Shown: positions 16,401 through 16,453 of the stretch, piece by piece
Layout of the letters: the number at the start of each line of letters is the position of its first letter
How positions within the stretch are numbered: the stretch's first letter is position 1
Sequence record: OZ370878.1
DNA: 40,608 nt
Source: a phage
Strand: one strand, 5' to 3'
Program-made: the position numbers and the translations under genes
The notes under the pieces: model-generated
What the model was told of the DNA's origin: nothing
The model's database searches: none
Seen by the model: only the letters and a program-made list of their open reading frames with translations

Positions 16401-16453
16401 ACTAGTGCCACCTATGGTATATCTCCTTCTTAAAGTTAAACAAAATTATTTTA
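16401..16453 (-). promoter_or_regulatory. Engineered translation initiation region for GFP1-10: duplicated gene-10 leader with AAGGAG Shine-Dalgarno, spacer, SpeI site
   Basis: Minus-strand sequence AATAATTTTGTTTAACTTTAAGAAGGAGATATACCATAGGTGGCACTAGT ATG. Confidence 0.85.

Follow-up and report, generated by a model that had tools for sequence, protein, structure and literature searches.

Several described systems come close to this locus. The split GFP of Cabantous, Terwilliger and Waldo pairs GFP1-10 OPT with GFP11 M3, while the UTR1 leader of the pET/pBEST plasmids consists of the T7 gene-10 leader with the Shine-Dalgarno (SD) motif AAGGAG and an ATG embedded in an NcoI site, so that the AUG follows AAGGAG by 7-8 nt. 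T7Select-type display keeps 10B in a fixed frame that ends in ...MLGDPNS. Near-cognate start codons that down-regulate their genes are also known, such as the AUU of infC, an AUN codon at optimal distance from a good SD. Regarding genes that share one mRNA, efficient translational coupling usually needs a stop and a start that overlap or are closely adjacent, and an SD brought to its start by a hairpin is known for the phage T4 genes 38 and 25.

As described in the 2025 paper 'A synthetic cell phage cycle' from Levrier/Noireaux (PMC12808745), the phage T7-Split-S* carries gp10B-GFP11 in place of 10A/10B and, after it, GFP1-10 'under a ribosome binding site'. It was built by PHEIGES from PCR fragments and a 1722-bp synthetic fragment and was plaque-picked, and its genome sequence is based on long-read nanopore data only (PMC12808745). 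Both the phage and its capsids are fluorescent, membrane fluorescence being visible only at 10^11 PFU/mL, and no viable phage was obtained when sfGFP was fused directly to gp10B (PMC12808745).

Identity and layout of the engineered genome

The window, which is the whole stretch of 40,608 nt analysed here (OZ370878.1), is almost certainly the engineered T7 genome of T7-Split-S* (PMC12808745), judging from its sequence comparisons. Its reverse complement aligns to T7 over the full length, save for an insert of 755 bp and some minor differences, and it carries the substitution S541R (AGT>AGA) in gene 17 that is a trait of T7-S* (PMC12808745). This S541R allele is that of the RdLPS-specific tail fibre of the same work, and it is accompanied by a silent TCA>TCT two codons on (window 3663, 3669), both changes being also present in the sister clone PP384400.

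Other features of the record are worth describing. It is permuted (window 1-137 and 40296-40608), since in T7 numbering it starts at 39625, which is 153 nt ahead of the left terminal repeat, and ends at 39914; both record ends thus carry the same ~290 nt, among them most of the 160-bp terminal repeat, and the implied unit genome is ~40,478 bp, not 40,608. On the minus strand at 34607-34623, a 75-bp deletion (T7 5849-5923) merges phi1.1A and phi1.1B into the hybrid promoter CAATACGACTCACTATAGGAGAA. This deletion is found neither in wild-type T7 nor in PP384400, and apparently arose through recombination between the two promoter repeats.

The cassette runs in the order gene 10B-GFP11, two stop codons, a 35-nt leader copy, GFP1-10 and T-phi (Table 1). 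A search of public phage and plasmid records did not find this exact cassette, the matches being to generic GFP and T7 only. A scan for T7 promoters found no match between gene 10 and GFP1-10, so both are carried by one shared bicistronic phi10 mRNA.

Table 1. Features of the gene 10 / GFP1-10 transcript unit, in window coordinates
Feature	Coordinates	Strand	Basis or remark
T7 promoter phi10	17621..17643	-	exact match to TAATACGACTCACTATAGGGAGA; nearest T7 promoter upstream of gene 10-GFP1-10
Native gene-10 leader AAATAATTTTGTTTAACTTTAAGAAGGAGATATAC, then ATATG	17567..17601	-	leader comparison
Capsid gene 10, 10B frame, with GFP11	16454..17563	-	369-aa ORF; Pfam Gp10A-like, E=8e-115
GFP11 tag RDHMVLHEYVNAAGIT, 16 aa, C-terminus of the gene 10 ORF	16504..16457	-	ORF translation
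Gene 10 stop TAA	16456..16454	-	sequence
Second stop TAA	16451..16453	-	sequence
35-nt gene-10 leader copy (the laboratory's 'UTR1'), with A/U-rich enhancer	16417..16451	-	100% match
Shine-Dalgarno AAGGAG, strong	16423..16428	-	7 nt before ATA, 22 nt before ATG 16400
ATA at the position of the intended ATG	16413..16415	-	changed base 16413: G>A on the coding strand, C>T on the + strand
CCATAGG	16417..16411	-	sequence
AGGTGG, SD-like, from ATA + GGT GGC	16408..16413	-	7 nt before ATG 16400
SpeI site ACTAGT (Thr-Ser of the linker)	16401..16406	-	sequence
GFP1-10 ORF, 214 aa, MSKGE...DPNEK	15756..16400	-	Pfam GFP; stop TAA 15758..15756
T-phi terminator	15705..15752	-	annotated terminator in T7 records; gene 11 SD and ATG (15687) next

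A T7 derivative of 36.9 kb, with a 10B that terminates at a GDPNS multiple-cloning site, shares 99.8% identity with the window over the gene 10 region. The identity extends as far as GGATCCGAATTC and takes in the GGGGATCCGAATTC junction as well as the recoded frameshift region. The ...MLGDPNS cloning junction is one that we take to be of the T7Select type. However, the backbone of the window is full-length T7 and not a deleted vector, and the peptide on display serves to dock a 24-kDa partner that is produced in cis. At 16676, gene 10 Ser296 carries a silent T>C (TCT>TCC) that creates the SacII site CCGCGG. Wild-type T7, the sister clone and the T7Select-like record all lack this change, which may stem from editing of the design or from a second error in the synthetic fragment.

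As in split GFP, the capsid C-terminus bears RDHMVLHEYVNAAGIT and the partner is a 214-aa GFP1-10, preceded by a GGT GGC ACT AGT linker before its Met. This protein is near-identical to sfGFP-type PDB chains, with matches spanning residues 1-214, and ends after K214 (strand 10), where a stop codon follows. Compared to the gfp of phage RB43, it shows Y39I, N105K, E111V, I128T, K166T, I167V and S205T besides the superfolder changes, and 39I, 105K, 111V, 128T, 166T, 167V and 205T correspond to the GFP1-10 OPT substitution set. The window differs from the described split GFP in encoding both halves in one phage operon and in the mutated ATG of the linker, which would now be mostly untranslated leader.

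Two further observations concern these parts. By design, the copied leader forms a 35-bp direct repeat (16417-16451 and 17567-17601) that brackets the whole gene 10; the repeat is expected to be stable, because a phage that recombined the two copies would lose its capsid gene and not survive. GFP codon 4 (window 16389) is GGC, compared to GGA in the gfp insert of phage RB43, a silent difference that abolishes an internal AAGGAG 6 nt past the ATG; sfGFP-type genes also have GGA at this codon.

The GFP1-10 start region

On the minus strand, positions 16456..16398 read TAA TAA AATAATTTTGTTTAACTTTAAGAAGGAGATATACC ATA GGT GGC ACT AGT ATG. The initial annotation had proposed an unusually long SD-to-ATG spacing in front of GFP1-10, and the facts behind this reading are right: AAGGAG lies 22 nt (16422..16401) upstream of the GFP1-10 ATG at 16400..16398, whereas T7 itself, over its 57 annotated starts, keeps the best-scoring SD 3-10 nt from the start codon. 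What had been overlooked is that the broken NcoI site, already recognized in CCATAGG, held the intended start codon. The SpeI site ACTAGT named by the annotation is present (16406..16401). As the cassette is a designed sequence, the question of chance hardly applies to these motifs.

The description of the leader as a copy of that of gene 10 also holds, since the copy (16451..16417) and the native leader (17601..17567) are identical at 35 of 35 positions, and the same leader, AATAATTTTGTTTAACTTTAAGAAGGAGATATAC, occurs in the mCherry cassette of the same laboratory (PP384393). That cassette reads AATAATTTTGTTTAACTTTAAGAAGGAGATATACC ATG GTG AGC, ending ...GAAGGAGATATACC ATG G, with its ATG exactly at the position of the window's ATA. 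Both share the junction ...GATATACC, and the codon that follows is ATG in the mCherry cassette and ATA in the window, the altered base 16413 coming right after GATATACCAT. The laboratory's standard gene-10 leader likewise ends ...AAGGAGATATACC-ATG-G, whereas the window has lost the NcoI site along with the canonical start. Where UTR1 has its AUG, the window has ATA at 7 nt from AAGGAG and its nearest ATG at 22 nt.

The linker has a precedent of its own. The GFP1-10 primers of another group, (G)CCACC-ATG-GGTGGCACTAG and GGTGGCACTAGTATGAGCAAAGG (in letters, GCCACC ATG GGT GGC ACT AG and GGT GGC ACT AGT ATG AGC AAA GG), show the GGT GGC ACT AGT linker adjoining the GFP Met on its 5' side, and one of them puts an ATG ahead of the linker. 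Taken with the mCherry cassette, these primers indicate an intended ORF of CC ATG GGT GGC ACT AGT ATG AGC (M-G-G-T-S-M-S-K), with CC-ATG-G where the window reads CCATAGG. The intended ATG position is 7 nt after AAGGAG, and the ATA found there is in frame with ATG 16400, 15 nt downstream; with the single change 16413 G>A, the NcoI site and the intended start codon disappear together.

From these comparisons, the long spacing can be attributed with reasonable confidence to one G>A change (ATG->ATA at 16413) that removed the intended start, and not to the design of a spacer. Neither MGGTS-GFP1-10 nor the 214-aa form was found by exact look-up among 15 billion proteins, no chain with an MGGTS prefix appeared in the PDB search, and a literature search for a 12-letter protein string gave no matches. 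The parental ORF is thus reconstructed from the primers and the sister cassette, as MGGTS-GFP1-10 is absent from the protein collection and the PDB.

Initiation and predicted output of GFP1-10

Upstream of ATG 16400 and back to the stop codon, no in-frame ATG, GTG or TTG was found. The strength of the candidate sites, for which the initial annotation had proposed a ribosome-binding-site (RBS) prediction as a check, was estimated by a simplified re-implementation of an RBS-Calculator-type model, which ignores the gene-10 enhancer, the occlusion by a 30S subunit bound at AAGGAG and translational coupling. The parameters of this model are reportedly those of Salis et al. 2009.

In this simplified model, the ATG of the design scores -5.27 kcal/mol, with an AAGGAG hybrid of -8.8 kcal/mol at an aligned spacing of 5, while ATG 16400 scores -3.01 kcal/mol through AGGUGG, whose hybrid of -5.8 kcal/mol includes one U.U mismatch at an aligned spacing of 6. 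The predicted rate from ATG 16400 is then ~2.8-fold below that of the design ATG, a figure that could be off by an order of magnitude in such a crude model. If AAGGAG were to act on ATG 16400, the model would charge ~14 kcal/mol for an aligned spacing of 20 nt, so that this SD is effectively unusable for that start. The opening energies are similar for all candidate start regions (6-8.4 kcal/mol), and hence RNA structure does not tell the candidate starts apart.

The suggestion that AGGTGG, 7 nt upstream, may be the functional site gains from these values, as it is the most plausible SD for ATG 16400. It lies within the 5-9 nt of a canonical SD and at the weak end of the natural T7 range, being weaker than 53 of the 57 natural T7 SD sites and standing alongside those of genes 1, 8, 0.7 and 2.

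We infer a course of events in which the G>A at 16413 would leave a strong SD facing a near-cognate AUA, with an expected initiation of ~1-3% of AUG. Initiation at AUA has been described as 1-2% of that at AUG, with a range of 0.02-3% (bioRxiv 10.1101/063800). ATG 16400, 15 nt further on, would become the main start and give a 214-aa MSKGE... protein, relying on the accidental AGGUGG that arises from the Gly-Gly codons of the MGGTS linker. Some help may come from the A/U-rich leader, if it acts as a standby site, or from ribosomes finishing translation of gene 10, whose stop lies 53 nt upstream. As an outcome, GFP1-10 synthesis would be reduced relative to the capsid but still functional.

Overall, GFP1-10 is most likely made mainly as the 214-aa form from ATG 16400, with a small 219-aa fraction made from AUA and a possible contribution from re-initiation. 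The real drop could be from ~3-fold to a few tens of fold, a range kept wide because the model ignores the enhancer, the 30S occlusion of the downstream site and coupling. Of the initial proposal that GFP1-10 is tuned down or compromised, lower output thus appears likely, but a disabled gene does not fit, given the ~3-fold predicted loss and the fluorescence of the published phage.

A different route would have AUA as the main start, where the strong SD and the gene-10 enhancer at perfect spacing would yield mostly a 219-aa MGGTS-GFP1-10. The AAGGAG hybrid of -8.8 kcal/mol at an aligned spacing of 5 suits this route, as does the place of AUA in the top four near-cognate codons. Substantial AUA expression in a recombinant cell-free extract was reported by Hecht et al., and no late T7 transcript is more abundant than this mRNA. 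However, the measured strength of AUA is 0.02-3% of AUG, whereas ATG 16400 with AGGTGG is predicted to differ from a normal RBS by a few fold at most and is comparable to the sites of T7 genes 1 and 8, which leaves AUA improbable as the main start.

Slightly less probable still is that GFP1-10 is made mainly by re-initiation after the gene 10 stop codons, the local SD having a minor role. Gene 10 is very heavily translated, and no promoter separates its stop from ATG 16400, which follows on the same transcript. Meanwhile, the distance is 53 nt, from 16454 to ATG 16400, and not the overlap or few nucleotides that mark coupled genes; this is a long separation, which also contains two stop codons and an intervening strong SD.

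A hairpin of the T4 gene 38 type, looping out the spacer so as to bring AAGGAG next to ATG 16400, is very unlikely and was rejected, because the 4-bp stem (UACC/GGUG) that the minimum-energy fold does place within the spacer is marginal (MFE structure frequency 0.04, centroid unstructured), folds no better than expected (z = 0.60, with 142 of 200 shuffles folding at least as well) and would sequester AGGUGG, still leaving a spacing of ~11 nt.

Resemblance to the infC-type starts is limited to the AUN codon at optimal distance from a good SD. In the window, by contrast, the synthetic gene carries a single-base lesion and a rescue ATG follows 15 nt later, and nothing points to regulation.

Origin of the base change and its significance

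Besides 16413, the genome carries ~14 other private single-base substitutions in 38.9 kb when compared to the sister clone PP384400, 13 of them transitions. Such a pattern of mostly transitions is the one expected of PCR or synthesis errors fixed by picking one plaque, and the mix of silent and missense changes is uninformative on selection. At that density, ~0.6 changes would be expected in the 1722-bp synthetic fragment, where two candidates are seen (16413 and 16676). The G>A at 16413 is most likely a PCR, synthesis or replication error that was fixed by plaque picking.

The private missense changes (13488, 19545, 35994 and 37552) include gene 12 L529P, gene 8 C249Y, T7 RNA polymerase M431V and gene 0.7 R295W, and the viability of the phage indicates that these changes in essential or important genes are tolerated. 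A second CATGG>CATAG change is present at window 6596 (gene 16 Gly909Ser) in the same local context as 16413; this is probably a coincidence, as 78 CATGG sites are intact, and a systematic base-calling error at CATGG was rejected for the same reason.

Chance alone would strike exactly the start codon in ~0.1% of cases (16 x 3 / 40,608). Together with the lethality of the sfGFP fusion, this value makes selection for less GFP1-10 attractive as an idea, though unproven. Under such selection, ATG>ATA would have been favoured during cell-free rebooting and plaque picking, as only variants underproducing GFP1-10 would form plaques: GFP1-10 made at the level of gene 10 would put a 24-kDa domain on every GFP11-tagged capsid subunit and could block assembly, in the manner of the direct sfGFP-gp10B fusion. 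We regard this origin as possible but tentative.

It is rather unlikely that the ATA was already in the ordered synthetic DNA, whether by accident or on purpose, for instance to inactivate the first ATG, to remove the NcoI site or to lower GFP1-10 output, with translation then beginning at the GFP gene's native Met. Any base can be chosen in a synthetic fragment, and the silent 16676 T>C (SacII) and the GGA>GGC of GFP codon 4, both within this fragment, hint at editing by hand or by the vendor. A designer with such freedom, however, would be expected to drop the 15-nt linker and not to leave a strong SD facing ATA, and removal of NcoI does not appear to be the aim, since the NcoI site inside GFP (CCATGG near 16230) is intact. 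In addition, PMC12808745 mentions only 'its own ribosome binding site'.

Somewhat more doubtful is a consensus error, in which the phage truly has ATG, with a normal RBS at 7 nt, and 16413 is miscalled in the assembly. The use of long nanopore reads only would allow for it, and the oddly permuted record ends suggest little manual curation. Nevertheless, 16413 is a clean substitution and not a change in homopolymer length, the 78 other CATGG sites are intact, and the ~14 other private differences, nearly all transitions and both silent and missense, occur in a phage that is viable, which is what genuine PCR or replication errors would give.

Every part of this locus is a known engineered module, and the finding is a quirk of construction that brings no new biology. 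Its practical value is that of a construct-quality note for users of T7-Split-S* and for construct design, as a published fluorescent T7 appears to have been deposited with a genome that deviates from its design at the GFP1-10 start codon. This change probably lowers the GFP1-10:capsid ratio and alters the N-terminus of the protein, and it may contribute to the weak signal per particle. It also illustrates how a gene that has lost its start codon can be rescued when Gly-Gly linker codons (GGT GGC) happen to work as a ribosome-binding site. If the change was indeed selected, the genome would record a stoichiometric ceiling on the decoration of the T7 capsid with a bulky partner, along with a simple route for tuning it.
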